Shown: piece after piece, positions 1-20,000 of the stretch
Numbering within the stretch: the first letter of the stretch is position 1
Layout of the letters: each line of letters begins with the position of its first letter
From: an uncultured virus (IMG/VR IMGVR_UViG_3300027026_000009)
Lineage: Duplodnaviria; Heunggongvirae; Uroviricota; Caudoviricetes
IMG/VR virus record: IMGVR_UViG_3300027026_000009
DNA: 20,000 nucleotides
Direction: 5' to 3' (one strand)
Position numbers and translations under genes: made by a program
The notes under the pieces: generated by a model
Seen by the model: the letters and a program-made list of their open reading frames with translations, nothing else
What the model was told of the DNA's origin: nothing
The model's database searches: none

Positions 1-549
1 TACTTGACAACTCTTGCTAACCTCAAAGCTACCTTTCTGCTGTTTTCTTACTTCTCTTTCGCCTTGTGGTGTATTATAGTAGAAAATCTTTCTACCGTTT
101 TCCAGTTTGGTTCTAACAAGCTTATCATTAACAACTATTTTCCGTTCTTCATCAAAATACTCCGTTAATCTGTAAAGACCTTTACTTGCTAACCCAAAGC
201 TAAAAACACCTCTCGGAATACTACTGAATTTTAATCTGCTTTGTTCAAAATCACCACCTAAATCAATATCTGCTTCAACTTGTCTTTTTATACCTAAAGC
301 ATCATCTAAAAGTTGTTGGTCTTGAAACCTAGATAAGTTTTCATAACTAGACCACTCATTAAATTCATTTATATTGTCACTAGCACCGTCATACCCACCG
401 AACCGATCACGCATAGCTAAATCTAAATATTGCTGTTCAGTGTAAAACTTATTTGTATTAGGCAAGTCTTTATTGTCCTCATACAATTCCCTAGCCGAAT
501 CAAATAAGCTGAAGTCAAAATTTCTTGCAATTTCTTCAAGTATAGTCAT
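1..549 (-). CDS. Partial CDS running off the window; probable partner (possibly vWA-type) of the adjacent MoxR-type ATPase
   Basis: Not in the ORF track. Hand translation from ATG at 549 is open for 183 codons to base 1 (MTILEEIARNFDFSLFDSARELY...IDLGGDFEQSRLKFSSIPRGVFSFGLASKGLYR...). Start overlaps the ATPase stop (TAATG). Partner role inferred from context only; no MIDAS motif in the visible part. Confidence 0.8.
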   Translation of the reverse strand, partial: MTILEEIARNFDFSLFDSARELYEDNKDLPNTNKFYTEQQYLDLAMRDRFGGYDGASDNINEFNEWSSYENLSRFQDQQLLDDALGIKRQVEADIDLGGDFEQSRLKFSSIPRGVFSFGLASKGLYRLTEYFDEERKIVVNDKLVRTKLENGRKIFYYNTPQGEREVRKQQKGSFEVSKSCQV

Positions 550-1880
550 TACAATTCAAGGGCTTGTTTTGCTTTTTGTTTTCTTTCCGCTTCTTCAATT
601 ATAGCTTCGGCAAGTGCTGTCTCTTTAGCTGTCGCTTTTTTGAGTTCGGTTACACTAGCTTCTTGTTTCTTTTCGGCAGTTGCTAAAAAGTCATCGTATT
701 CCTTTTGCATACTTTTGATTAAACCGTCTCTTTGTTCTTCACTAAATAAGCTTAAAAAAGAAGCAGTCGCATCTGCTAAAGTTTTAGGCTTAATAATTTT
801 TCTGGTCTGTCTGTTTTCAATATAGGCATTAAAAGTGTCACGATAAGAAACCATTAACCTCGTAGATACAAAAGCAACGCCATTTAAGTTTGCTTCATTT
901 ATCTTTTGTCGTAAGACGGCTAGGAAATTAAAGACAAATGTTAGATTGTATTTGAATTTTGATAAAAGTTCGTATTCAAATCTATAATTGTAAGTAACCC
1001 TATAACAGCTACCCGCAAACCTATCTTGTAACGAGAGGTCTTGCTTAAAGTTGGCTTCATAGTCTTTATTAGCTTCGTTCAATAAACTGTTACCAGTTGC
1101 TATAACGTAAAGATTCTTTAATTCAAATTGTTCGCCACGACCATTTGTAATTCTGGGTTTGTATTTTTTCTTTTCGCCAGTAGCACAATTTGTACCGTCT
1201 TTGTCACCATCTTTAATTTTTGAGAGTGCATCATTTAAAAGACCCGCAGTATTAGGGTCTAGCTTAGGTAATTCATCTAATAAAAGTAATGCACCGTCAT
1301 AAGGTTTACAATCTTTGTTCTCACCTAAATTTAGGTTTGCCCAAGCTTCAATTAAACGCCCTTCTTGATAGCCTTCAATGGTCTGTCCGCCAATAATGTC
1401 GGTTGGTGATGTAAATTGATTACAGTTTAGCGTTATCAATTTATAATTAATAGCATCAGCTATTTGACCCGCCATGTAAGTTTTACCAGTTCCCGCTTCA
1501 CCATAGAGATAGGAATTTAACCTTGCTTTTTGGTCGGACAAAAGAACAAAGAACAATCGCCTTTTATCTTTAAAAGTGCCACTGTAAACTACTTCATCAT
1601 CCCTAGTAATGTCATAGGTTACATTTTCGCTTGCGCTTGATAGGTTTAAAGACTTTATGCGTTCATCTATAAGTTTGTTAACTTCTGTCTTATTAACACC
1701 GCCAGAATCAACCTTTTTTGCTTCTTCTATTAGCTTGTTAACATCGTTAATCAACTCACTGAAATCGGCAGATTTTGACACAGCTTTTGCTTCGTCTCTT
1801 TGCCTTAATAGTTCAATCGCCTTTTGTCGAATACCTTCTGATGGGCTTTGCGTCAGTTTTATTAAATCTTCTCTAGTCAT
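549..1880 (-). CDS. MoxR/CobS-like (AAA_5, dynein-related) AAA+ ATPase, 443 aa
   Basis: Walker A GEAGTGKT, Walker B LLLLDE, pre-B 'DIIGG', sensor-1 'IATGN', Arg finger 'QDLSLQDRF', sensor-2-like 'VSTR'; helical N-terminal extension. Confidence 0.93.
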   Translation of the reverse strand: MTREDLIKLTQSPSEGIRQKAIELLRQRDEAKAVSKSADFSELINDVNKLIEEAKKVDSGGVNKTEVNKLIDERIKSLNLSSASENVTYDITRDDEVVYSGTFKDKRRLFFVLLSDQKARLNSYLYGEAGTGKTYMAGQIADAINYKLITLNCNQFTSPTDIIGGQTIEGYQEGRLIEAWANLNLGENKDCKPYDGALLLLDELPKLDPNTAGLLNDALSKIKDGDKDGTNCATGEKKKYKPRITNGRGEQFELKNLYVIATGNSLLNEANKDYEANFKQDLSLQDRFAGSCYRVTYNYRFEYELLSKFKYNLTFVFNFLAVLRQKINEANLNGVAFVSTRLMVSYRDTFNAYIENRQTRKIIKPKTLADATASFLSLFSEEQRDGLIKSMQKEYDDFLATAEKKQEASVTELKKATAKETALAEAIIEEAERKQKAKQALEL

Positions 1881-6958: not shown

Positions 6959-7111
6959 TGCATAAATAAGCACAATAAATCGCTATATGTGTATTTAATT
7001 GCAATTTTTCGGCTTTTTGGTGCTTAAAAATATCAAATTTTACCTATAAAATTGTGAAAACGCTAGTTTTGTTAAATAAGAATTGTCAATTCATTAAAAA
7101 ACAATATTGTT

Positions 7112-7254: not shown

Positions 7255-7288
7255 AAAAAAGGCTACCAGATCGGTAGCCATTTTTTTT
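7255..7288. terminator. Bidirectional intrinsic terminator
   Basis: A6-GGCTACC-agatc-GGTAGCC-a-T8 between convergent ORFs 7112-7231 (+) and 7304-7576 (-). Confidence 0.9.
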
Positions 7289-7303: not shown

Positions 7304-7576
7304 TTAAGACTTAGGTAATAAGCCAAAACGTTTAACGGTGATTGCAAGATCGCCTTTTGCGTAACCTACATAACCGTCTTTACTAATATACATAAAATAA
7401 TTTACCGAATTTGGTCTTTGCTCATTTTGCAAGGTTATTTTTATTTTCTCGTTCGGCTTGCCTTTGCGCACAAGTCGTTTTGACTTGACTTTAAGCACCA
7501 CTTCGTTTCCTTTCGCCATTGCACTATCAAAAAGTATTTTCACTCGGTCGTTGCGTTTTAAATTTTCTACTTTCAT
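7304..7576 (-). CDS. Hypothetical basic protein, 90 aa (possible SH3/KOW-like barrel)
   Basis: ATGA overlap with the upstream gene; 'VENLKRNDRVKI' start; ends just before a terminator. Confidence 0.8.
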   Translation of the reverse strand: MKVENLKRNDRVKILFDSAMAKGNEVVLKVKSKRLVRKGKPNEKIKITLQNEQRPNSVNYFMYISKDGYVGYAKGDLAITVKRFGLLPKS

Positions 7577-8021: not shown

Positions 8022-8405
8022 TTAAAGGTCAAAGATTGAAACTGCGCCACTGTTATTTGACTTGATAAATGACTTACCTACCGCTTCACCCGCAGTGGAC
8101 ATTATTTGGCTCTTAATCACTTTCCAGTCATCTTCGGCAAACTCAACTTCAGTAAGCTTGTCAATTTGTAGGTGAAGGAAGTAAGCACCGCCACTATGAG
8201 GTCGTGACATTTTGCCTTTGCCATTAACATCAATCCTAGCAATTCTAGTGCTACTTTGAATAGTGATGTTTTTGGCATCTTCGTCAATAGGATAAACAAT
8301 GAAGTCTTGGGGCTTTCTCATTCCTTGGGCTTTCATTTCAATAGAAATTGTACCCATGATGTTTTTCTTAATACTTAAAACTTGAACTGGTTGCATAACT
8401 AACAT
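8022..8405 (-). CDS. Hypothetical phage protein, 124-127 aa (alternative start 8396)
   Basis: First gene after a consensus promoter; plausible globular sequence (MRKPQDFIVYP...IQSSTRIARI...HSGGAYFLHL). Confidence 0.85.
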   Translation of the reverse strand: MLVMQPVQVLSIKKNIMGTISIEMKAQGMRKPQDFIVYPIDEDAKNITIQSSTRIARIDVNGKGKMSRPHSGGAYFLHLQIDKLTEVEFAEDDWKVIKSQIMSTAGEAVGKSFIKSNNSGAVSIFDL

Positions 8406-8458
8406 TTTTGATTACAGAACAAATGTAAGCTTTAAGTACGACTTATCCAAATAAAATT
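8394..8458 (-). promoter_or_regulatory. Bacteroidota primary-sigma promoter cassette, copy A
   Basis: Minus strand TTTG-N20-TACATTTG, an exact -33/-7 consensus. 23-nt and 11-nt blocks are identical to 18399-18463 with the same spacing. Confidence 0.88.
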
Positions 8459-8483: not shown

Positions 8484-8556
8484 GTTGTAACTTATAGGGT
8501 ATAACGTATCATGGTTGGTTAAACAAAAGAGGAAGCTTTCGGGCTTCCTTTTTTTT
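8484..8556 (+). ncRNA. Candidate small RNA (~70 nt), unit E
   Basis: -7-like TACATTAG at 8472-8479, ORF-less body, then a plus-oriented terminator with no plus-strand gene upstream. Body contains CAT-GGTTGGTTAAAC (antisense to GTTTAACCAACC-ATG). Confidence 0.55.
8530..8556 (+). terminator. Intrinsic terminator, plus-oriented
   Basis: GGAAGCT-TTCG-GGCTTCC followed by T8; the U-G closing pair and UUCG loop form only in plus-strand RNA. Confidence 0.88.
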
Positions 8557-8570
8557 GTCAATTTAAAAAG

Positions 8571-8606
8571 TGAGAACTTTTGAGAACTTTTGAGAACTTT
8601 TGAGAA
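8571..8606. repeat. 10-bp tandem repeat (TGAGAACTTT)x3.6
   Basis: Exact copies at 8571, 8581, 8591, partial at 8601; bracketed by inverted AAAAGTGA (8566-8573) / TCACTTTT (8607-8614). Confidence 0.95.
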
Positions 8607-8612
8607 TCACTT

Positions 8613-9119
8613 TTAAAATAGGCTTAATATTGCTACTATAATTGCACCAACGGTAGTTCCTAACAAGAAAGCTGTAAACTTGCCTTTAGCTTTTTCTTTG
8701 TAGTATAGAATTTCGTTTTCGTGAATCAATTTGTTGTTGTCAAATTGTTCATCCTTTATTGCTTTGATTGTTTCAAGTTGCCTTAGTTCGTTTTGAAGTT
8801 TTTCACGCACCACTTCACCAGAAGCAATTTTATTTTCCTTTAAGGTTATTTGCAATTTCAGACTTTCTATTTTGCTTTCAAGGATTTGGAAACGTAAATA
8901 TTTTAAGTTTATGCTGTCCATGTGCGTTTCACTAATGAGTACCGCATTCAAACCGTTTAAATTTGCTTTTATCGGTTTTATAAGATTAAACTTTTCGGTC
9001 TTTAAAATAATCGTGCTATCTGTCGTTCGGAATTGTGTGTGAATCGGTGACAAACTTTGTGAATGTAATAAAGTTTGGAACAAAATCACCAGAAGTATAG
9101 TCCTTAAAAGCGTCCTCAT
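8613..9119 (-). CDS. Signal peptide + coiled coil + C-terminal TM protein; spanin-like partner
   Basis: N-terminal MRTLLRTILLVILFQTLLHS-Q, heptad region, C-terminal FTAFLLGTTVGAIIVAILSLF; overlaps the upstream gene by 104 bp; no Cys. Confidence 0.65.
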   Translation of the reverse strand: MRTLLRTILLVILFQTLLHSQSLSPIHTQFRTTDSTIILKTEKFNLIKPIKANLNGLNAVLISETHMDSINLKYLRFQILESKIESLKLQITLKENKIASGEVVREKLQNELRQLETIKAIKDEQFDNNKLIHENEILYYKEKAKGKFTAFLLGTTVGAIIVAILSLF

Positions 9120-9402: not shown

Positions 9403-10201
9403 CAGTTGCGTGAATCATGTCAATTGTTACGGTTTCAACAAATTTACTGAAATCTTTTTTGGTCTTGAAATTGTTAAGAAAGGTTATTACGATGTACTGT
9501 TTCTGTAATTGAATAACTTTTTCATTAGCCTTCTGGCGTTTCTCTATGTGTTCTTTTCGGATAACAGCACCGTAATTTTTTTCCTTTACGGATTGCAAAT
9601 AAATCTTTCGTGCGTACTCGGTAGCACTTTGGATCATTTCTTTTGTAGGTGTCAGTAATTTGTTTGCTTTTATAAAATCATAAAGTACATTGCCCAAATC
9701 AACATAGTCGGATTCTTTATTTATGTCCTTTTGATGGTCATAGGCATTTTTCAAAATAGTTTTAAAAGTTTCCAGACGTTCATTTGGTTCTGGCTTAGGC
9801 AGTGGTTTTTCTGCTTCGATTTTTGCCCTTTTCTGTTTTTCCGAAACAATACTTTCACCTCGAAATTTTCGATATTCCGAAAGGATGGTATTTACGTAAA
9901 TGACACTAAAGTTTCCGTGGTATTGCGTTACGAACTTGCCCTCGCTAGATAAATCCCTAGCGGTTTTAATATCTAAAAGATTGTATGTCGGGAACGATTT
10001 TCGCACGGCACTTTCAATAACCTTTAATTCTTGTGCGGTGCATTTATAACCTACAAGTGCTGACCATACACCAAGTTCTGTAATTAAGGCTTGTTGGTCT
10101 TTGGATTTCGGCTCATAATCCCCAAGCTTTTTTTCAATTTGGCTTGCATTGTAAATACTCAATGATAATGGTATCTGTTTTTTAATTGTTGATGGCTTCA
10201 T
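9383..10201 (-). CDS. Hypothetical protein, 272 aa; possible helicase-loader-type partner of the upstream replication protein
   Basis: 20-bp overlap with 10182-10787 (O/P-like gene order); no NTPase motif. Function from position only. Confidence 0.6.
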   Translation of the reverse strand: MKPSTIKKQIPLSLSIYNASQIEKKLGDYEPKSKDQQALITELGVWSALVGYKCTAQELKVIESAVRKSFPTYNLLDIKTARDLSSEGKFVTQYHGNFSVIYVNTILSEYRKFRGESIVSEKQKRAKIEAEKPLPKPEPNERLETFKTILKNAYDHQKDINKESDYVDLGNVLYDFIKANKLLTPTKEMIQSATEYARKIYLQSVKEKNYGAVIRKEHIEKRQKANEKVIQLQKQYIVITFLNNFKTKKDFSKFVETVTIDMIHATDGMDKK

Positions 10202-10787
10202 GTATTGCTCTATTTATAGCGTTCAACTTTGATTCATTTTGGGTCGGGATGTGTTGGTTTAGATAACTGTCCATTTTATTTCCGAACAATGTCTCTGGTC
10301 TTAGGTAAAGATTTTGTGGAGTGTTCAACCATTCCATTGCTTTCAATCTGATGACGTGTTCAAAATCCAATTTATCAAAACCTTCCCTTAACCTTGCCCT
10401 AATATGTTTTCTATGTGACTTGGTTTTCAACCTAAAATTTTTTCCAGTGACTTTGTTTAAAGTCGTCAATATTTCATCTATTGTTTTTTCTTCTGATTCA
10501 GAAAGAAGTGAGGTTTTTGGTACGACTTTTTCAGTTTTCCACCATACCATATCGACCTCAATTTCGATACGAAGAACTGTGTCGTCCGTGATATAAAATA
10601 TGTTATTATGTGTCTTTAGAAAATGAAAGATTTCTTCACGGTCAATATCGAATAGTTTTCTAAAGTTTACTAGACTGTGAACTCGCTTTTTACCTTTGAC
10701 CAAATTGGTAAGGCAATAGTTAAAAAACAATATCTGTTTATGGCTTGCGGATTCATTGATTTTCTTTAATGTCTTAAATAGTCGCAT
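10182..10787 (-). CDS. Phage replication-initiator-like protein with conserved phage C-terminal domain (Phg_2220_C-like)
   Basis: 'EILTTLNKVTGKNFR...HIRARLREGF..DFEHVI...EWLNT...YLRPETLFGNKMDSYLNQ' fits the family pattern. Confidence 0.82.
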   Translation of the reverse strand: MRLFKTLKKINESASHKQILFFNYCLTNLVKGKKRVHSLVNFRKLFDIDREEIFHFLKTHNNIFYITDDTVLRIEIEVDMVWWKTEKVVPKTSLLSESEEKTIDEILTTLNKVTGKNFRLKTKSHRKHIRARLREGFDKLDFEHVIRLKAMEWLNTPQNLYLRPETLFGNKMDSYLNQHIPTQNESKLNAINRAIHEAINN

Positions 10788-10788
10788 A

Positions 10789-10961
10789 GTCGATGTTTAC
10801 TTGATTTGGTCAATATGTATTGATGTCGATTTGATAGGTTTTTTTTAGTTGTTTTTTGTTGTCGATTTAACCTCGGTTTACCACCTCGATATTGAAGTCG
10901 ATTTGTTGCTGTAATTGAGGTTAATTATAGACCTACAAATTTAAGTCGATTTGTCGCTTTG
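10789..10961. repeat. Dispersed GTCGATTT(G) direct repeats in the intergenic region
   Basis: GTCGATTTG at 10825, 10897, 10945; GTCGATTT at 10861; variants GTCGATG at 10789 and GTCGCTTTG at 10953. Confidence 0.8.
10936..10943 (-). promoter_or_regulatory. -7 element for the replication/spanin operon
   Basis: TAAATTTG (consensus TAnnTTTG) on minus, ~150 nt before ATG 10787; no well-spaced -33 seen. Confidence 0.6.
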
Positions 10962-10972
10962 ATTGATGTCAA

Positions 10973-11354: not shown

Positions 11355-12227
11355 ATGCTTAAACTCGGGAGTAAAGGTGAAATGGTCAAGCGGTTGCAAC
11401 GTTTTTTGAACGTAACTGTCGATGGTCATTTCGGTATTGAAACAGAGAATGCTGTGAAAGAATACCAGACGAAAATGAACATTACAGTCGATGGTATTGT
11501 TGGACGGCAAACTTGGGCGGTAATGGAACTGGCAACTACCGATGAAAGTGAAAAGCATTTTGTAACGGAAAACGGTCTTTCAATTATTCCGTTTTATATG
11601 GATCATGGTGAGTACGTAAATGAGATAACCAAAAAGCGTTATCTGTTTCTACATCACACAATGGGTTGGAACAATCCTTACAACCAGATCAAGCAATGGG
11701 AAAATGATGAGCGTGGTGCTATCGGTACTGAATTTGTAATCGGTGGTAAAAGCATTCAAGGTGATTCAAAATATGACGGTCTGGTGCTTCAAGCTTTTCC
11801 AGAAGGATATTATGCTTGGCACTTGGGTAAAATAGGAAATCGTGAAGTGCATACGGATAGTGTCGGCATTGAACTATGTAATTTTGGTCAGCTTGTAAAC
11901 GGTAGAACTTGGGCGGGTCAAAAAGTGCTTCCAGAAGAAATATACCATATTGATTTTCGTGGATATGATATGTACCATAAATACAGTGAAGAACAACTTT
12001 ACAGTCTGCGGAAATTGATTTTGTATATTGCGGATAGGGATAACATCGATGTCTGTTCTGGTCTTATAGATAAGATAAATGAATTTGGTGTCCAAAAAGC
12101 GTTTTCTTGGCAACGTGAAGCTTATTACGGAACGGTAGAAGGAATGTGGACACACGCAAACACACGGACGGATAAACTTGATTGTTTTCCGCAAGATAAT
12201 TTTATAGATATGTTAATGACAATTTAG
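11355..12227 (+). CDS. Endolysin: N-terminal peptidoglycan-binding domain + N-acetylmuramoyl-L-alanine amidase (Amidase_2)
   Basis: LKLGSKGEMVKRLQ..VDGHFG..TENAVKEYQ..VDGIVGRQTW (PG_binding_1); LHHT, AWH, SVGIEL, TH..RTDKLD zinc-amidase motifs. Confidence 0.92.
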   Translation: MLKLGSKGEMVKRLQRFLNVTVDGHFGIETENAVKEYQTKMNITVDGIVGRQTWAVMELATTDESEKHFVTENGLSIIPFYMDHGEYVNEITKKRYLFLHHTMGWNNPYNQIKQWENDERGAIGTEFVIGGKSIQGDSKYDGLVLQAFPEGYYAWHLGKIGNREVHTDSVGIELCNFGQLVNGRTWAGQKVLPEEIYHIDFRGYDMYHKYSEEQLYSLRKLILYIADRDNIDVCSGLIDKINEFGVQKAFSWQREAYYGTVEGMWTHANTRTDKLDCFPQDNFIDMLMTI

Positions 12228-12229
12228 TT

Positions 12230-12571
12230 ATGAGTTTAAAAAGAACCGAAGGAAGATTTGTCCTTCAAGTGGGCGACAGCGAATTAGCTGTCTTTGTGGA
12301 TTTAGCCAGTGGTCGTTTAAAGGTAAAGGACTACGAAGGCAATGAAGCGTTTGCTAGTGAATTTTTACCTAATGCGGGTACAACTAGCACAAAACAAGTT
12401 TTTACATCAACAGCAAGCCAGACAGATTTTACCTTGACTGGTGAGCCTAATAATGTTGATGTTTGGGTAAACGGTGTTTACACCCAAGATTATACTTTGT
12501 CGGCATCGACCGTAACTCTTGGTGAAGCACCCATTACTGGTAGTGAAGTAGTAATTCGTAAATATTTTTAA
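12230..12571 (+). CDS. Small putative virion/fibre-associated protein, 113 aa
   Basis: C-terminal 'FTSTASQTDFTL...VDVWVNGVY..DYT...VTL..A...GSEVVI' beta module like those of phage tail/baseplate proteins; coupled to both neighbours. Confidence 0.65.
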   Translation: MSLKRTEGRFVLQVGDSELAVFVDLASGRLKVKDYEGNEAFASEFLPNAGTTSTKQVFTSTASQTDFTLTGEPNNVDVWVNGVYTQDYTLSASTVTLGEAPITGSEVVIRKYF

Positions 12572-12572
12572 G

Positions 12573-14180
12573 ATGAAAAAATTAATGGCAATTTTAATGT
12601 TTTTGGTAGTATCAACAATTTATGCACAGATACCGCCAGATTTTAAGAACGGTATAATCGTTGGTAACAATTCAAGCGCACCGACTGGTTATAAAATGGG
12701 TCAAATGTACTTTAACAGTGCTGATTCATTAATGTATTTTTATGACGGTAACAGATGGAAGCTTTCTGGTGTCCTTCAAGCTTTGGATGAAGGCAATGGT
12801 CTTGGATATAGATACGCAAATGCAGATTTATCTAAAATGACCGATATAGGTTCAAATGCACTGGATTTAACGACAGTTTTTGGCGGTGACACCGATTATG
12901 GTGTTGGTTCAGATAGCGGATTTTCTTTTGGGTCTGACAATAAGCTTCCAAGAACCGCTTCAAATTTTGGGATGCACCTTACAATGGGTTTTGGTAACAC
13001 CGTTCAAGGCTATTACAATAATATGGCTTTCGGACTAAGCAATACTATTACCAATGGGTACAGTTTTTTTACTGCGGGCTACGAGAATACTGCTAATATG
13101 ACACCTACCGTGGGTCAAGGTGCTTCTTTGGGTAATTTTAACAGTAACACAAATTACTGGAACTTTAATATCGGATCTGGTCTTATCAATAAATGGAAAG
13201 GAAGTGTTGCGGTCGGTATGGGTAATGTCGATAGTGCCGAAGGCGTAACCGCTTCTGACAGACCGATATTTATTGTTGGTAATGGCGACCTTAATTCGAC
13301 TACCGTAAATTATGGTCAAGTGCTGTCAAGAAGTGACGCTTTTAGGGTCTTAGCAAACGGTACGGTGGAAATGGGAAATAACTTTGTGACTGGTATTGGT
13401 AGTGTCATTAACGAAAGGTCACGTGACACGACTAATTCTAATTATCTGCCAGTGGTTTTTCAAAACGACCATGTTGCTACTACAAATAACACAAATTTAA
13501 CTTGGTTTTTAAATAATATAGTTGAATTGGAAGGTGATGCAAATACTGGGAGTACACGTGGTTTTAACAATAGATTAGGTATTGAAGGAAACGGTACTAG
13601 CGATTTTATTATTGGTGTTTATAATGACCTTAATTACAATAATGGTGGTAACAACGACATTACTGCTTTTTATGGTTTGTACAACGATATGAGTGTAGCT
13701 ACCGATAGTACGGCTACGCATGATTTTACAATTGCGGGCGTTTACAATGTTTCACTTACAGCACCTAATGTAACAACAGACAACCTTTACGGTGCTTCAT
13801 ACGATTTAAGCGTTCAGAATGGTACTGTTAATAACATTAATGGTCTTAGGATTGATATTGACCAGAACGGTACAAATTCGGATATTCTCGATGGGGCTTT
13901 TATTTTTGTTGATGGCGGGATTAATATAGCTGAAGCTGAAACAAACGGTATTTTGGTTATTGAATCCGTTGTTGACTTACCAAGCGAACTAGCGGGAACA
14001 TTACAAGCTAAGGCACTTATAACAGATACATTTACTTTTGCAACCTTACCCACTGGTGTTGTCGGGATGACGGCAACAATCACTGATGCAAGTTCCGTAA
14101 GTTATAGAGGTGTAGCTTCTGGTGGCGGTTCGGACACGGCATTAGTCTTTTATGACGGTACGCAATGGATTTATCACTAA
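12573..14180 (+). CDS. Fibre/adhesin-like protein with cleavable signal peptide, 535 aa
   Basis: MKKLMAILMFLVVSTIYA-Q; 'GQMYFNS..MYFYDGNRW'; YadA-head-like G..N repeats; 'IFIVGNG...RSDAFRVLANG'; Asn/Gly-rich beta-helix-like region; fibre-type end 'TFATLP..GMTATITDAS..SGGGS...VFYDGTQW'. Confidence 0.78.
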   Translation: MKKLMAILMFLVVSTIYAQIPPDFKNGIIVGNNSSAPTGYKMGQMYFNSADSLMYFYDGNRWKLSGVLQALDEGNGLGYRYANADLSKMTDIGSNALDLTTVFGGDTDYGVGSDSGFSFGSDNKLPRTASNFGMHLTMGFGNTVQGYYNNMAFGLSNTITNGYSFFTAGYENTANMTPTVGQGASLGNFNSNTNYWNFNIGSGLINKWKGSVAVGMGNVDSAEGVTASDRPIFIVGNGDLNSTTVNYGQVLSRSDAFRVLANGTVEMGNNFVTGIGSVINERSRDTTNSNYLPVVFQNDHVATTNNTNLTWFLNNIVELEGDANTGSTRGFNNRLGIEGNGTSDFIIGVYNDLNYNNGGNNDITAFYGLYNDMSVATDSTATHDFTIAGVYNVSLTAPNVTTDNLYGASYDLSVQNGTVNNINGLRIDIDQNGTNSDILDGAFIFVDGGINIAEAETNGILVIESVVDLPSELAGTLQAKALITDTFTFATLPTGVVGMTATITDASSVSYRGVASGGGSDTALVFYDGTQWIYH

Positions 14181-14197
14181 CCTTAAACACTTAACAG

Positions 14198-14225
14198 AAA
14201 AAGCCGTCCAAAGAGACGGCTTTTT
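14198..14225. terminator. Bidirectional intrinsic terminator
   Basis: AAAAAGCCGTC-caaaga-GACGGCTTTTT, perfect 11-bp inverted repeat; ends the fibre gene (+) and sRNA unit C (-). Confidence 0.92.
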
Positions 14226-14283
14226 CATTTCCCAAATCAAGCGTTTGACGCTCATAACTATCTTAACCTAACTTATGATAGTG
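14198..14283 (-). ncRNA. Candidate small RNA, unit C (~85 nt)
   Basis: -7-like TAAATTGC (14288-14295); body includes CAT-AAGTTAGGTTAAGATAGTT and an internal hairpin (14240-14252); ends at terminator 14198-14225. Confidence 0.5.
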
Positions 14284-14296
14284 TGGTGCAATTTAC

Positions 14297-14331
14297 AAAA
14301 AAAAGCTAGATTGTTGTCGCAACCTAGCTTT
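14297..14331 (-). terminator. Intrinsic terminator, minus-oriented
   Basis: Minus RNA GCUAGGUUG-cgacaa-CAAUCUAGC-U8; the G-U pair forms only on minus (A-C mismatch on plus). Confidence 0.85.
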
Positions 14332-14364
14332 AAACAAATACACTGTATGGGAACTTAAAATTCC
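14297..14364 (-). ncRNA. Candidate small RNA, unit B (~68 nt)
   Basis: -7-like TATATTTA (14369-14376); body ...GTTCC-CAT-ACAGTGTATTTGTTT; own terminator. Confidence 0.5.
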
Positions 14365-14378
14365 ATGGTAAATATAAT

Positions 14379-14407
14379 AAAAAAGCCAGTCAATGAAAAC
14401 TGGCTTT
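14379..14407 (-). terminator. Intrinsic terminator, minus-oriented
   Basis: AAAAAAGCCAGT-caatgaaa-ACTGGCTTT; U6 tail on minus. Confidence 0.85.
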
Positions 14408-14451
14408 AATTACACGAAATAAAAATGCAAAACTATGTCAAAGTTTATACC
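14379..14451 (-). ncRNA. Candidate small RNA, unit A (~72 nt)
   Basis: TTG (14484-14486)-N20-TACTTTGC (14456-14463); body GGTATAAACTTTGA-CAT-AGTTTTG-CAT-TTTTATTTCGTGTAATT; own terminator. Confidence 0.55.
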
Positions 14452-14469
14452 TCTTGCAAAGTAACAATT

Positions 14470-15003
14470 CTAAAACTTATTTTCAAGTGCTTTTAAATAA
14501 ATCTGCATATCTTTTTTAAATACCGCACTTAAACGACCTTTAATTCCCATATCAACTTCACCTCTTGTCTTTTTTGAAACGTTCATCTTTTTAAGGTCTG
14601 CTATATTAAAGTAATATCCATAAGTCGCTAAAAACGGCTGTAATTGATTTATTGCGATAACGTGTTGGCAACCTTCAGTCCAATATTCCAATGTTCTAAA
14701 AGGTTTAAAGCTTAATAGTTCTTCATTTGTAAGGTTCAATATTATTTCATTTAAGCTTACGTTGTTGTAGTGCGCATAATGCAACCTTCTCGGGAAATCA
14801 GCCCTTGGCTGTAATTCTTGAAGGCGGTAATTTAAAAGGCTAATAAAGCGATCAACTGGATGTCTTACGATTGTAAAATATGTTTTATTCTGGTCTTTTG
14901 GTCTTATATGACCATTGAGTTCGATTCCCATGTTATTCAATAAATGGTTTACCGAGATTCCACCGCATTTAGGAGTATGTACAAAGCATAAAGGTTTTTC
15001 CAT
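14470..15003 (-). CDS. Sulfotransferase family 2 protein, 177 aa
   Basis: 5'-PSB-like FVHTPKCGGIS, 3'-PB FTIVRHPVDRFIS, C-terminal 'N.S...FKKDMQIY'. Confidence 0.85.
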   Translation of the reverse strand: MEKPLCFVHTPKCGGISVNHLLNNMGIELNGHIRPKDQNKTYFTIVRHPVDRFISLLNYRLQELQPRADFPRRLHYAHYNNVSLNEIILNLTNEELLSFKPFRTLEYWTEGCQHVIAINQLQPFLATYGYYFNIADLKKMNVSKKTRGEVDMGIKGRLSAVFKKDMQIYLKALENKF

Positions 15004-15020
15004 GGCTCACTTTTAGGTAT

Positions 15021-15051
15021 AAAAAAACCGTTTCGACAAAAACGGTTTTTT
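15021..15051. terminator. Bidirectional intrinsic terminator / possible attenuator
   Basis: AAAAAACCGTTT-cgacaa-AAACGGTTTTTT, 12-bp inverted repeat. Confidence 0.85.
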
Positions 15052-15080
15052 CTACTAATTAAAAACAATCGTATAAATAT
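15021..15080 (-). ncRNA. Candidate small RNA or attenuated leader, unit D (~60 nt)
   Basis: Consensus TACATTTG (15084-15091), then (C)ATATTTATACGATTGTTTTTAATTAGTAG, then the terminator. Confidence 0.4.
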
Positions 15081-15104
15081 GAACAAATGTACGAAAGCAT
15101 AAAG

Positions 15105-15356: not shown

Positions 15357-15387
15357 AATAATAATAGATTTAGACAGCTAAGATAAT

Positions 15388-15410
15388 AAAAAACCACTCA
15401 TTGAGTGGTC
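15388..15410 (-). terminator. Intrinsic terminator after 15421-15714
   Basis: Minus ACCACTC-aat-GAGTGGT followed by a T-run. Confidence 0.75.
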
Positions 15411-15420
15411 TTTATTTTTT

Positions 15421-16319: not shown

Positions 16320-16560
16320 TTGGTGTATGTTTTATGGGTTCGTTAATTTGGCTTTCTAATCTGAAGTCTAATTTAGGGAATTTTTCTTTGACTGCTTGTA
16401 CGCTATTGCATTGTGAGCATTTATGATTGTGCGATGTTTCATGCCAATCGCCATGAACTACTGGCACTCGGACGCTTTCGTAAAAGTACATCATACCACC
16501 GCATTTACAGATTAAATCGGTGCGCCATGCCAGAACTGGATATTTCCTAAACCTTTCCAC
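16246..16560 (-). CDS. Putative zinc-ribbon protein, 104 aa
   Basis: CKCGG...HKCSQCN; GTG start overlapping the upstream gene; tail overlaps the next gene by 74 bp. Confidence 0.7.
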   Translation of the reverse strand: MERFRKYPVLAWRTDLICKCGGMMYFYESVRVPVVHGDWHETSHNHKCSQCNSVQAVKEKFPKLDFRLESQINEPIKHTPNGNKASISIETNKESKTSGQGSIE

Positions 16561-16765
16561 TATTCGCTTTACTTAATTCTTCTTTTAATTCTTCCATGGC
16601 TAATTTATAGCCAAAGTTCTTAGATAGTTGCATTAGTAACATATCGTTAGTTCCGTGGTTCGCTTTTGCAAAGGAATTTAGGTATTCCTCTGTCGGTGTT
16701 GCGACAATACTTCTGTCTAGTAAAGCTAGTTTTTCATCGATTATTTTAATAGTTTTTTTTGACAT
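16547..16765 (-). CDS. Hypothetical protein, 72 aa
   Basis: A-rich start region; sits in a co-oriented gene run. Confidence 0.78.
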   Translation of the reverse strand: MSKKTIKIIDEKLALLDRSIVATPTEEYLNSFAKANHGTNDMLLMQLSKNFGYKLAMEELKEELSKANSGKV

Positions 16766-16777
16766 CGTTTTTTATTT

Positions 16778-17191
16778 TTATTTGTTGATATTCGCAACGT
16801 TGCTTTGCTTTATATGTTTTTCTAAACAAGTAATGTACTTCAAAACGCTTATAGGTGCTTTAATGTAATCTTCTTCGGCATTATTTTTCCAATAATTTAA
16901 AGTGTGTCCGTCATATTTTCTCATTTCAATTTTATTGTTTTTAAGATACATTTTAACCCAATCTTCTGGGCTTGTCATAGTGCAAGTAAAGTCTTTTTCA
17001 AAAAGCCACTCGCAAAAAGGAAGTAACTGTTCTATTTGCCCTACAACATTAGATGTGCGCAATTGCTCAATCTCTGCAAGAAGCTTATGTATTTCTTCAA
17101 CCTTTTGCTTTAGTTCATTAGCAAGTCTTTCAAATAACCATTCATCACTTTTACCTTTCCAAGCTTGTCTATGTTCTTCTAATTTTGTCAT
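16778..17191 (-). CDS. Hypothetical mosaic protein, ~137 aa
   Basis: Track ORF 16778-17209; ATG at 17191 (AAAAAACCA-ATG) preferred over the TTG at 17209. Confidence 0.78.
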   Translation of the reverse strand: MTKLEEHRQAWKGKSDEWLFERLANELKQKVEEIHKLLAEIEQLRTSNVVGQIEQLLPFCEWLFEKDFTCTMTSPEDWVKMYLKNNKIEMRKYDGHTLNYWKNNAEEDYIKAPISVLKYITCLEKHIKQSNVANINK

Positions 17192-17615: not shown

Positions 17616-17873
17616 TTATTTATTTTCTAAGTGTTCAGTTATAAGACTGTCTTTTGTGACGTTTATAACTTCCATTTCGGTATCGTTTCTAAATAAAATA
17701 TATTTCATACCCCCTTCTTGTATCTCGTATTTCGTTATGAACCTTATTCCGCTTTCGACCGATTTTATATTAGGTTGCTTAATTGGTGTTGCGTTCTTCT
17801 CGTCACACTTAAAAAAAACGCACCCCACAAGAATAAAGAGTGCGTAGAAAGAAAATTGTTTAAAGTCAATCAT
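17616..17873 (-). CDS. Small membrane-anchored protein / possible lipoprotein, 85 aa
   Basis: Hydrophobic FSFYALFILVG-C with lipobox-like LVGC (Cys18). Confidence 0.7.
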   Translation of the reverse strand: MIDFKQFSFYALFILVGCVFFKCDEKNATPIKQPNIKSVESGIRFITKYEIQEGGMKYILFRNDTEMEVINVTKDSLITEHLENK

Positions 17874-18021
17874 TTTTACTTATTAATCGGTTAATTGTAT
17901 TGTGTATTCCCATAACGAATGACACCCTTAGTTCTTCACTATCTGGAAAGAACTTTGTAGAACATATGTCTATTTCTAATTCGGTAGGGATGTAGGGTTG
18001 ATTTTGGTTTGATTTTGACAT
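17866..18021 (-). CDS. Hypothetical 51-aa protein
   Basis: Not in the track. Hand translation MSKSNQNQPYIPTELEIDICSTKFFPDSEELRVSFVMGIHNTINRLISKND*; AAAACC-ATG start; ATGATTGA overlap with the next gene. Confidence 0.72.
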   Translation of the reverse strand: MSKSNQNQPYIPTELEIDICSTKFFPDSEELRVSFVMGIHNTINRLISKND

Positions 18022-18032
18022 GGTTTTATGAT

Positions 18033-18410
18033 TTAGGATAAAGTAAATTCTTTAAAGTTTACGGATTTTCCACCTAATGAAAGATAGTAACCCGAATTTT
18101 CTTCAACCAACGTTTTTAACTGGTCAAAGTATATTTCTTTTTGCTCGTTCATAACCTTCCAAATTGAAGTTTTGCCCGCTTCTGGATTGCCCGCATGAAA
18201 TTTCATAACTGACATCTTAAAAAAATCATAGTAGTAAGTGATCTCGATTCTGATTTTGTTCGGAAAGGTGATTCTTAGACCGTCATCAATAATCACCAAC
18301 TTTGCGCCAGTAAACGCTTGAAGCTTTTTTATTCCGCCCAAACAATTTGCAATGTAAATAGCCATTTCTTTACTGGCTGAAGGGTTTTTTAATTTTGCCA
18401 TAACTAACAT
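18033..18410 (-). CDS. Hypothetical phage protein, 122-125 aa (alternative start 18401)
   Basis: First gene after promoter cassette B; 'IANCLGG.KKL.AFTGAK...IYFDQL..LVEENSGYYLSL'. Confidence 0.82.
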   Translation of the reverse strand: MLVMAKLKNPSASKEMAIYIANCLGGIKKLQAFTGAKLVIIDDGLRITFPNKIRIEITYYYDFFKMSVMKFHAGNPEAGKTSIWKVMNEQKEIYFDQLKTLVEENSGYYLSLGGKSVNFKEFTLS

Positions 18411-18463
18411 TTTTGATTACATGGTAAAAATAGGTAAAAGGTACGACTTATGCAAATTAAATT
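18399..18463 (-). promoter_or_regulatory. Promoter cassette, copy B
   Basis: TTTG-N20-TATTTTTA; collinear with 8394-8458. Confidence 0.82.
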
Positions 18464-19706: not shown

Positions 19707-19757
19707 ATGCTTTGATTACTAAAGCGTAAAGATATAAAAAATAATAGCTTTTTAAAA

Positions 19758-19876
19758 TCGAGATTTTTTTTGACTTAACCGATCAAGAACGGAACATTTT
19801 TTAAGAATGGTAAAAAACTACTCCGATTATATTCGAGATTTTTTTCTTATAGAGGTTCTAAATTCGAGATTTTTTT
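19758..19876. repeat. Three direct copies of TCGAGATTTTTTT in non-coding DNA
   Basis: Exact 13-mers at 19758-19770, 19833-19845, 19864-19876; the last two extend to ATTCGAGATTTTTTT. Confidence 0.9.
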
Positions 19877-20000
19877 ACTTCTGGAATATAATTTAAGTTT
19901 TTTATAGAAATAATTTTACTTAATAGAAAATTGTTATAGGTCAATACGTGCTACTATACTTTATTTTTTTTCACACATAGTACCCCCCTTGGTGTTCCTG

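Follow-up and report, generated by a model that had tools for sequence, protein, structure and literature searches.

The intergenic gap of 289 base pairs (bp) at positions 14181-14469 of a 20,000-nucleotide (nt) stretch of DNA from an uncultured virus of the class Caudoviricetes (IMG/VR record IMGVR_UViG_3300027026_000009; the whole stretch is referred to below as the window) is best explained, with a confidence slightly better than even, as a cluster of transcription terminators in which one short RNA is embedded. The features that carry this explanation can be observed directly, namely, three GC-rich hairpins (denoted H1, H2 and H3) with runs of T, the gene map around the gap, a match to the promoter consensus of Bacteroidota (denoted P1), and slow divergence of the gap in a related phage. 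An earlier analysis of the letters alone, without database searches (hereafter, the sequence-only reading), had interpreted the same gap as an array of three modules, each consisting of a promoter, a guide-like body and a terminator, and producing short antisense RNAs that would silence host or phage messenger RNAs (mRNAs).

The gap is the sole convergent junction in the window, among 30 open reading frames (ORFs) that were accepted as genes. On the left, a rightward cassette of three genes ends at 14180, and on the right, the last gene of a leftward train, a sulfotransferase-like gene that encodes a protein of 177 amino acids (aa), ends at 14470, with its 3' untranslated region (UTR) extending into the gap. 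The primary role of the gap would be to stop transcription where the rightward cassette meets the leftward train. In this scheme, H3 would end the sulfotransferase-like mRNA, H2, as a fail-safe, and then H1 would catch the polymerases that pass H3, so that the lysis cassette would not be transcribed antisense, and H1 would end the rightward cassette, acting in both directions and providing the last stop for the read-through on the minus strand.

The three GC-stem terminators described in the sequence-only reading, with T-runs on the minus strand, were recovered at the same places by a repeat finder, a terminator scan and folding. H1 (14197..14226, both strands) is an inverted repeat with a perfect 12-bp stem, a 6-nt loop, A5 on one side and T5 on the other, and its 12-nt arms (14197-14208 and 14215-14226) are 100% complementary according to the repeat finder. 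H2 (14294..14331, minus strand), detected both as an inverted repeat and by the terminator scan, has a 12-bp stem with one mismatch, a 6-nt loop and an 8-T run; its 12-nt arms (14302-14313 and 14320-14331) are 92% complementary, and the scan reports it at 14331..14302 of the minus strand with 12 pairs and the tail TTTTTGTAAA following a stem that already uses three T. H3 (14376..14407, minus strand) has a 10-bp stem, a 6-nt loop and a 6-T run and is reported by the same scan at 14407..14382 with 10 pairs. H1 was missed by the terminator scan because its T-run was absorbed into the stem. When folded in a 34-nt sliding frame, the minus-strand energies are -19.5 kcal/mol for H1, -14.4 for H2 and -13.8 for H3 (-19.1 for H1 on the plus strand); ranked by energy, all three fall within the top seven minus-strand hairpins of the window. 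The 8 nt that follow the stem on the plus strand contain a single T in H2 and two in H3, so that these two are minus-strand signals; H1 has five T on both strands, and given the symmetric A5/T5 flanks, it is as much a plus-strand as a minus-strand terminator, a symmetry that was missing from the sequence-only account. The gap as a whole folds far better than its shuffled versions (z-scores of -6.1 for the minus strand and -5.6 for the plus strand, with none of 200 shuffles reaching the same level). The structure signal comes from the hairpins alone because the three spacers, taken separately, fold no better than shuffles (z-scores of -1.1, 0.0 and -0.2 on the minus strand).

All three hairpins have the hallmarks of intrinsic terminators, that is, a GC-rich stem-loop of 10-12 pairs with a T-run 3' of the stem, downstream of a gene end. 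H1 starts 17 nt past the plus-strand stop codon (14180) and H3 lies 63 nt past the minus-strand stop codon (14470), with H2 behind it. Elsewhere in the window, A/T-flanked hairpins are present at 15385-15416, 7255-7286, 15021-15052 and 8525-8554, located 8, 19, 53 and 59 nt after genes, respectively, and the distance from the stop codon to H3 is close to the latter two values. Thus, the positions of H1 and H3 are those expected for terminators of the flanking genes, and only H2 is surplus. The transcribed regions distinguished in Flavobacterium psychrophilum include partial termination as a class of its own (PMC9723704), and bidirectional terminators between convergent genes have been mapped in the Pseudomonas phage LUZ7 (PMC9163698), so that a fail-safe placed before the inverted lysis cassette would suffice to explain H2. 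Taken together, it appears very likely that the hairpins are terminators at a convergent junction. No T-tailed hairpin was found within 370 nt after the stop codon of the homologous gene in any of 19 distant loci (near-full-length matches to the 177-aa protein that were picked from 80 loci), and the architecture therefore belongs to the phage lineage and not to the 177-aa gene family. A separate case of a symmetric A/T-flanked hairpin is that at 7255-7286, which comes after gene 7304..7576 and is followed by approximately 350 bp without an ORF before a gene for a 1206-aa protein; the sole plus-strand intergenic TAnnTTTG motif of the window (7064-7071) falls in this ORF-less space beyond the hairpin.

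The case for an embedded RNA starts with the promoter. In F. psychrophilum, the -7 box of sigma-A promoters, TAnnTTTG, spans positions -12 to -5, and a variant, TAnnTTGY (motif SM5), occupies the same place and is tied to transcription start sites (PMC9723704). Perfect TAnnTTTG motifs occur 20 times on the minus strand of the window, with six of these in intergenic regions, and 22 times on the plus strand, with one intergenic. Five of the six intergenic boxes of the minus strand are directly upstream of minus-strand genes, and given this concentration, the motif is informative for this phage. P1 (14428..14460, minus strand), a putative Bacteroidota promoter of the sigma-A type, consists of TTTG at 14460..14457, a 21-nt spacer (N21) and the -7 box TAGTTTTG at 14435..14428, and accordingly shows both components of the consensus, the TAnnTTTG box and TTTG at a distance of 19-21 nt. 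It lies downstream of the minus-strand stop codon and before H3, and no ORF follows it. The complete pattern, TTTG-N19-21-TAnnTTTG, has only two matches when both strands of the 20 kilobases (kb) are counted, P1 itself and a site upstream of gene 8022..8405; of 5000 shuffled versions of the gap's minus strand, 2.2% contain it. A sigma-70 scan was uninformative, with 72 sites compared with 71.1 in shuffles.

If active, P1, for which a start near 14423 is predicted, would yield a non-coding RNA of approximately 48 nt ending at H3, along with longer forms of approximately 130 and 230 nt resulting from read-through to H2 and H1, respectively. The expected product, then, would be one 5' end with nested 3' ends, rather than three separate units. 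We narrowly favor the view that P1 is active and gives rise to such a short minus-strand RNA.

Two sets of observations were made on similar promoters in the window. The genes 8022..8405 and 18033..18410 are identical over 23 nt of their start regions and similar in their promoter spacers, ATAAGTCGTAC (regions 8405-8451 and 18410-18460); in the -7 place, the promoter of 18033..18410 has TATTTTTA and the copy at 8022..8405 has TACATTTG. Judging from these regions, the two are paralogous early genes with paralogous promoters. The gap at 15004-15104, on the minus strand, presents the same order of elements as the stretch before H3, that is, a stop codon, a perfect -7 box (TACATTTG, 15091..15084) and a strong A/T-flanked hairpin (15052..15021, -14.0 kcal/mol). 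In contrast to H3, this hairpin is followed by a gene, as the sulfotransferase-like gene begins with its ATG at 15003. Such an arrangement, in which a promoter precedes a terminator-like hairpin, suggests attenuation or another short RNA.

The divergence of the gap was assessed with a contig of a relative (runs X3 and X4 of one sample) that is approximately 90% identical to the window, covers positions 13849-14695 and is collinear with it across the gap. The amino acid changes implied by this contig match the protein P0046, and hence the contig represents the phage that carries P0002 and P0046, or its close kin. The only insertions or deletions in the gap are single A insertions after positions 14192, 14344 and 14378. 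The piece from X4 (13849-14342) contains 45 differences, of which 40 were placed up to 14189; by subtraction, without reading the individual positions in the gap, at most five remain for the 153 nt that comprise H1, the spacer and H2 (14190-14342). The adjacent gene, by comparison, is changed at 26 of 110 third codon positions, with synonymous changes in 23 of the 29 codons affected. The H1-H2 half of the gap thus diverges approximately 7 times less than the neighboring third codon positions (Fisher's test, p 8e-7; 0.007 when compared with all coding positions). The piece from X3 adds 27 differences in 14343-14695, along with 12 amino acid changes in the corresponding part of the 177-aa protein; these changes require at least 13 of the 27 differences, so that few fall in 14343-14469. 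The slower change of the gap, including the spacers, compared with synonymous sites would result either from selection that extends beyond the stems or from a recent exchange of the segment. The onset of similarity to the relative, at 13849, is abrupt, and five of the nine bases at 14181-14189 differ, which makes a mosaic history a live alternative. In the same relative (run X3), the sulfotransferase-like gene carries a +1 insertion separated by 7 nt from a -1 deletion (14606-14613), and a 66-nt block (14696-14761) is too diverged to align; P0002 is still 177 aa long.

Further relatives suitable for comparison of the non-coding DNA were not detected in the databases searched. There was no match among the INPHARED phages, either by DNA or by the two flanking proteins, and in IMG/VR, the searches with the two flanking proteins gave no match in one case and only a 30-residue motif in four loci in the other, with no occurrence of the exact hairpin patterns. 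Metagenomes of the Joint Genome Institute (JGI), searched with a 9-sequence alignment of the 177-aa family, yielded 80 loci, the best with 46% protein identity, too distant for alignment of non-coding sequences. The genomes of GTDB contained no match to a 3-sequence alignment or to the H1 pattern, and comparison of the gap with 84 fetched loci (BLAST and nhmmer) gave chance-level similarity only, 29 bits at best.

The third signal is complementarity to start codons. The three bodies of the proposed array (denoted A, B and C) were compared with the 29 gene starts in the window, which covers 20 of the approximately 75 kb of the phage (~27%). The plus strand at 14417-14442 is identical in 23 of 26 positions to the mRNA-sense start region of the 72-aa gene 16547..16765 (16758..16783, minus strand), from -18 to +8, with ATG aligned on ATG. 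Given this resemblance, a minus-strand RNA covering 14442..14417 (hereafter, the anti-start segment) would be complementary to the start of 16547..16765. The same segment matches the start region of the 51-aa gene 17866..18021 (18014..18027, minus strand) in 13 of 14 positions, from -6 to +8, and here, too, the start codons are in register. The word AAAACNATGTCAAA, a motif defined post hoc, occurs three times in the window, in these two gene starts and on the plus strand of the gap. With the 29 start regions as the target, the share of controls that reached the 28.2 bits of this match was 1.65% for dinucleotide shuffles and 0.9% for natural decoys (n=2000 each); among sliding windows of the phage sequence itself, it was reached by 11 of 394, or five of 388 when the paralogous pair 8405/18410 was left out. 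With the whole window as the target, the same score was equalled by 21% of the shuffles and 19% of the natural decoys.

The principal alternative, which we regard as possible although on the unlikely side, is that the gap contains terminators and nothing else, that is, stacked stops without a functional RNA, with chance or recent recombination accounting for the promoter and anti-start matches and for the low divergence. This was the fallback of the sequence-only reading, stacked terminators between convergent operons, and it agrees with the gene map and with the positions of H1 and H3. Several results are in line with it: the -7-like boxes of the sequence-only reading are off-consensus, the plus-strand ATGs are not enriched in the gap, the duplex energies of start regions are no better than those of internal windows (see below), and the best similarity between the gap and the window as a whole is common in shuffles and decoys. 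A search of Rfam with the whole window recovered nothing in the gap at E-values up to 1, and with the gap alone, the best score was 24.9 bits against a threshold of 47. Against this alternative stand the rarity of the full promoter pattern in shuffles and of the anti-start match in both types of controls when the 29 start regions are the target, and the approximately 7-fold slower change of the H1-H2 half. Each of these signals is modest and they are partly post hoc, yet all point in the same direction. A promoter with the full consensus and no gene behind it, the 23 of 26 match to a start region and the slow evolution of the gap lend some support to a candidate regulatory RNA.

The explanation that we favor, terminators with one embedded short RNA, has its own difficulties, and the following points weigh against it. 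Termination, the activity of the promoter, the sizes of the RNAs and the regulatory role are all inferred from the DNA. The promoter match is sensitive to the definition of the -33 element: with a looser one (TTG, N18-22), a full match appears in 7.1% of the shuffles of the gap, and 40% of the shuffles of this T-rich minus strand contain a lone TAnnTTTG. Three strong hairpins in a convergent gap are uncommon but not unique: among 22 crudely called convergent gaps from 84 unrelated metagenomic loci, 14 have no strong hairpin, four have one, three have two and one has at least three. Plain terminators leave the low divergence of the spacers unexplained, but recent recombination could account for it, and the number of differences in the H1-H2 half is a remainder rather than a direct count. 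Finally, the anti-start segment overlaps the -7 box of P1 and lies mostly upstream of its predicted start, so that the two readings compete for the same letters and one may be a by-product of the other.

This overlap leads to the second alternative, which we consider doubtful, whereby the anti-start segment acts as part of the 3' UTR of the sulfotransferase-like mRNA. Being located in this 3' UTR, upstream of the predicted P1 start, the segment would act either there or in a transcript that begins further upstream; in pairing across the starts of the early genes 16547..16765 and 17866..18021, it would lower their translation, with H3 as the shared terminator. The in-register matches to the two genes and their scarcity in shuffles, decoys and the phage's own sequence speak for this mechanism. 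Moreover, 14442..14417 should be transcribed because H3, if it is the first terminator after the stop codon, lies beyond it, and the segment is predicted to be mostly unpaired. Nevertheless, the duplex is rich in A and U, and 16.5% of 200 shuffled versions of body A were as good by energy. The shared word AAAACNATGTCAAA was, as noted, chosen post hoc. Gene starts that encode Met-Ser-Lys behind an A-rich leader may be widespread in any case, and on the plus strand of the gap, the terminator tails are responsible for the richness in A. The comparison, furthermore, extends to only about a quarter of the phage.

The array proposed in the sequence-only reading, in which three promoter-body-terminator modules produce 70-90-nt minus-strand RNAs that silence host or phage mRNAs over their start codons, is very improbable. 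Much of the underlying description was accurate: its coordinates, spacings and letters are correct, with boxes, bodies and terminators spaced as described, the gap is free of ORFs other than frames of 21-39 aa that overlap hairpins or flanking genes, and no repeat family joins the bodies, which are indeed unrelated in sequence. The bodies are unstructured, and the gap is slow to diverge, both of which speak for the array. The three -7-like boxes are present where they were placed, but none matches TAnnTTTG. Two of them, TAAATTGC (14288..14295, minus strand) and TACTTTGC (minus strand), fit the TAnnTTGY variant of the F. psychrophilum start sites (PMC9723704), and the third, TATATTTA (14369..14376, minus strand), reads TAnnTTTA, with the final G replaced by A. 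In favor of the array, a promoter paralogous to another of the phage has TATTTTTA in the -7 place, and the minus strand of the gap is enriched in boxes of three -7-like kinds, with five found compared with 1.73 expected (2.1% of 3000 shuffles reach five), although one of these five is inside the stem of H2. None of the three boxes is accompanied by a -33 element at the right distance: for TAAATTGC, the nearest TTG is 24 nt away, with none at 19-21 nt, and for TATATTTA, the nearest upstream TTG is at 14 nt. The box TACTTTGC is better understood as the -33 element of P1, which had been overlooked; it holds the TTTG exactly 21 nt upstream of TAGTTTTG. Hence the gap contains one credible candidate promoter, P1, and the other two units appear to have no convincing promoters.

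The start-codon side of the array fared similarly. The bodies had been said to read on the plus strand like start regions followed by ATG, but there are six plus-strand ATGs in the gap compared with 4.17 expected (18.6% of the shuffles reach six), and their start-context percentiles among 623 ATGs (70, 95, 84, 74, 86 and 98.6) mostly reflect A-richness, which is what the context matrix, trained on 29 starts only, mainly rewards. Complementarity to start regions is suggested by identity for body A, but not by duplex energy and not for bodies B and C, neither of which exceeds 20.3 bits against any of the 29 starts. For body B, 62.5% of its shuffled versions (n=200) formed a start-region duplex as good as its best one. 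Body C forms its best duplex, at -25.9 kcal/mol, with the start of gene 10182..10787, a value matched by 1.5% of the shuffled bodies but within the range of 286 internal control windows (minimum -27.5). On average, pairing with start regions is weaker than with controls for bodies B and C, and for body A, the Mann-Whitney p is 0.09. In addition, body B carries a 1-nt insertion in the relative. With two of the three promoters off-consensus and devoid of a -33 element and only one of the three bodies complementary to gene starts, three independent modules are not borne out. The broader joint claim is improbable as well, namely, that this is a repeat-free and ORF-free locus of antisense RNAs, each with a single-stranded body and its own terminator, aimed at translation starts, such that the first body would target 16547..16765 and 17866..18021, and the other two would be directed outside the 20 kb or at host mRNAs.

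It is highly unlikely that the extra hairpin and the orphan promoter are remnants of small genes or morons lost from the junction because, despite the promoter without a gene, the one terminator beyond need, a start-like context at 14435 of the plus strand that opens only a 9-codon frame, and the moron-like layout of neighboring genes each with its own hairpin, such a relic would be expected to diverge no more slowly than synonymous sites, yet the gap is much better conserved, and no ORF remnant similar to anything was seen, with the best match of the gap to the 84 loci at the chance-level score given above.

The possibility of overlooked genes in the gap was also considered. No ORF of 40 aa or more is located inside the gap. 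The frames of 27, 37 and 39 aa were rejected as genes because they cross terminator stems or overlap flanking genes, and the 9-codon plus-strand frame at 14435, notwithstanding its good start context, was rejected given that the gap has no plus-strand promoter box. A scan of the window for transfer RNA and transfer-messenger RNA genes found none.

The window is phage-like, with 27 of the 30 genes on the minus strand; the only plus-strand genes are those of the cassette, which is embedded amid minus-strand genes. The first gene of the cassette (11355..12227, plus strand) encodes an endolysin with PG_binding_1 and Amidase_2 domains and matches to endolysin PHROGs, the second (12230..12571, plus strand) encodes a 113-aa protein, and the last (12573..14180, plus strand) a 535-aa protein, the relatives of which include P0046 (79% identity) and P0047 (62%). 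The N-terminus of the 535-aa protein (12573-12630) is hydrophobic and resembles a signal peptide, and the database versions start eight residues later (527 aa); the sole named distant relative of this protein carries PF05658, a family of YadA-head-type repeats. The sulfotransferase-like gene (14470..15003, minus strand) matches PHROG 3347; PF03567 scores 21.9 bits on its product, just under the cut-off of 22, and several of the 44 homologs found contain PF03567. Domain matches identify a gene similar to Phg_2220_C replication initiators (10182..10787) and an AAA ATPase gene (549..1880), and the remaining genes of the window mostly have no known family. Proteins of the window are recorded on contigs as long as 74,836 bp; P0002 and P0046 come from one of 68.7 kb, and P0003 and P0047 from one of 4.3 kb.

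The G+C content of the window is 34.9%, and 9.8% of it is intergenic. The gene starts lie in A-rich sequence in which no motif resembling Shine-Dalgarno sequences was evident on inspection, and a weak relative of the 535-aa protein is attributed by its source to Psychroserpens mesophilus. Because of the G+C content, the A-rich starts without Shine-Dalgarno-like motifs, the TAnnTTTG boxes upstream of minus-strand genes and the Psychroserpens relative, the host is taken to be a member of the Bacteroidota, probably a marine one, and probably belongs to Flavobacteriia.

Short repeats were noticed in three other intergenic locations. Directly upstream of the Phg_2220_C gene (10788-10972, minus strand), there are about five copies of a word similar to ACAAATCGAC that resemble the iterons of replication origins. 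At 8570-8600, AAAGTTCTCA is repeated three times head-to-tail between the stop codon of gene 8613..9119 and the hairpin 8525-8554. In the 294-bp gap at the end of the window (19707-20000), AAAAAAATCTCGA(A/T)T occurs three times, as operator-like repeats upstream of the leftward gene train.

Among the known systems, a close parallel to the cluster is with the terminators at the convergent junctions of phage LUZ7, which likewise combine GC stems with T-runs and include a symmetric hairpin between head-to-head gene ends, just after the stop codons (PMC9163698). Unlike these, the gap described here packs three hairpins into 289 bp, of which H2 and H3 would act in one direction only, both on the minus strand; its terminators are predicted from sequence, and it belongs to a phage with a Bacteroidota-like rather than a Pseudomonas host. 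The same source describes an intergenic small-RNA hotspot of LUZ7, from which sRNA1 and sRNA2 are transcribed with a common start and different terminators (PMC9163698). The parallel with the present gap is an ORF-less intergenic space of a phage in which one promoter and serial terminators would give nested short RNAs; the differences are that the LUZ7 RNAs were sequenced whereas those considered here are predicted, and that there is no sequence similarity between the two. With the arrays of clustered regularly interspaced short palindromic repeats (CRISPR) and other guide arrays, the only shared idea is that of several guides in a row; unlike CRISPR arrays, the gap has no repeat unit or shared scaffold, its three hairpins differ, and no associated protein gene is located nearby.

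Small RNAs of the DapZ/MicL type in enterobacteria originate in the 3' UTRs of mRNAs, with their own promoter and the terminator shared with the mRNA, and depend on Hfq. Similarly, the 3' UTR of the upstream gene contains P1, and the mRNA and the short RNA would have H3 in common; the predicted RNA is, however, very short (~48 nt), and its targets are only candidates. The OOP RNA of phage lambda is a short transcript with its own promoter and terminator that is encoded between opposing genes, acts by antisense pairing and overlaps its target in cis. The candidate short transcript described here would resemble OOP in having its own promoter and terminator between opposing genes but differs in the distance of 2.3 and 3.6 kb to the candidate targets and in the imperfect pairing.

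Overall, most of the finding is ordinary, but it contains a real lead. If the ordinary reading is true, the gap is a clear example of a phage insulating its inverted lysis cassette, with nothing new in kind, and the hairpins could serve as terminator parts for Flavobacteriia. In the literature on phage small RNAs, as covered by a search short of a full survey, no title reported a small RNA of a marine Bacteroidota phage. If P1 or the 3' UTR segment is active, the RNA would be among the first candidate regulatory RNAs of a marine Bacteroidota phage, with a concrete pairing to the start regions of two named genes.

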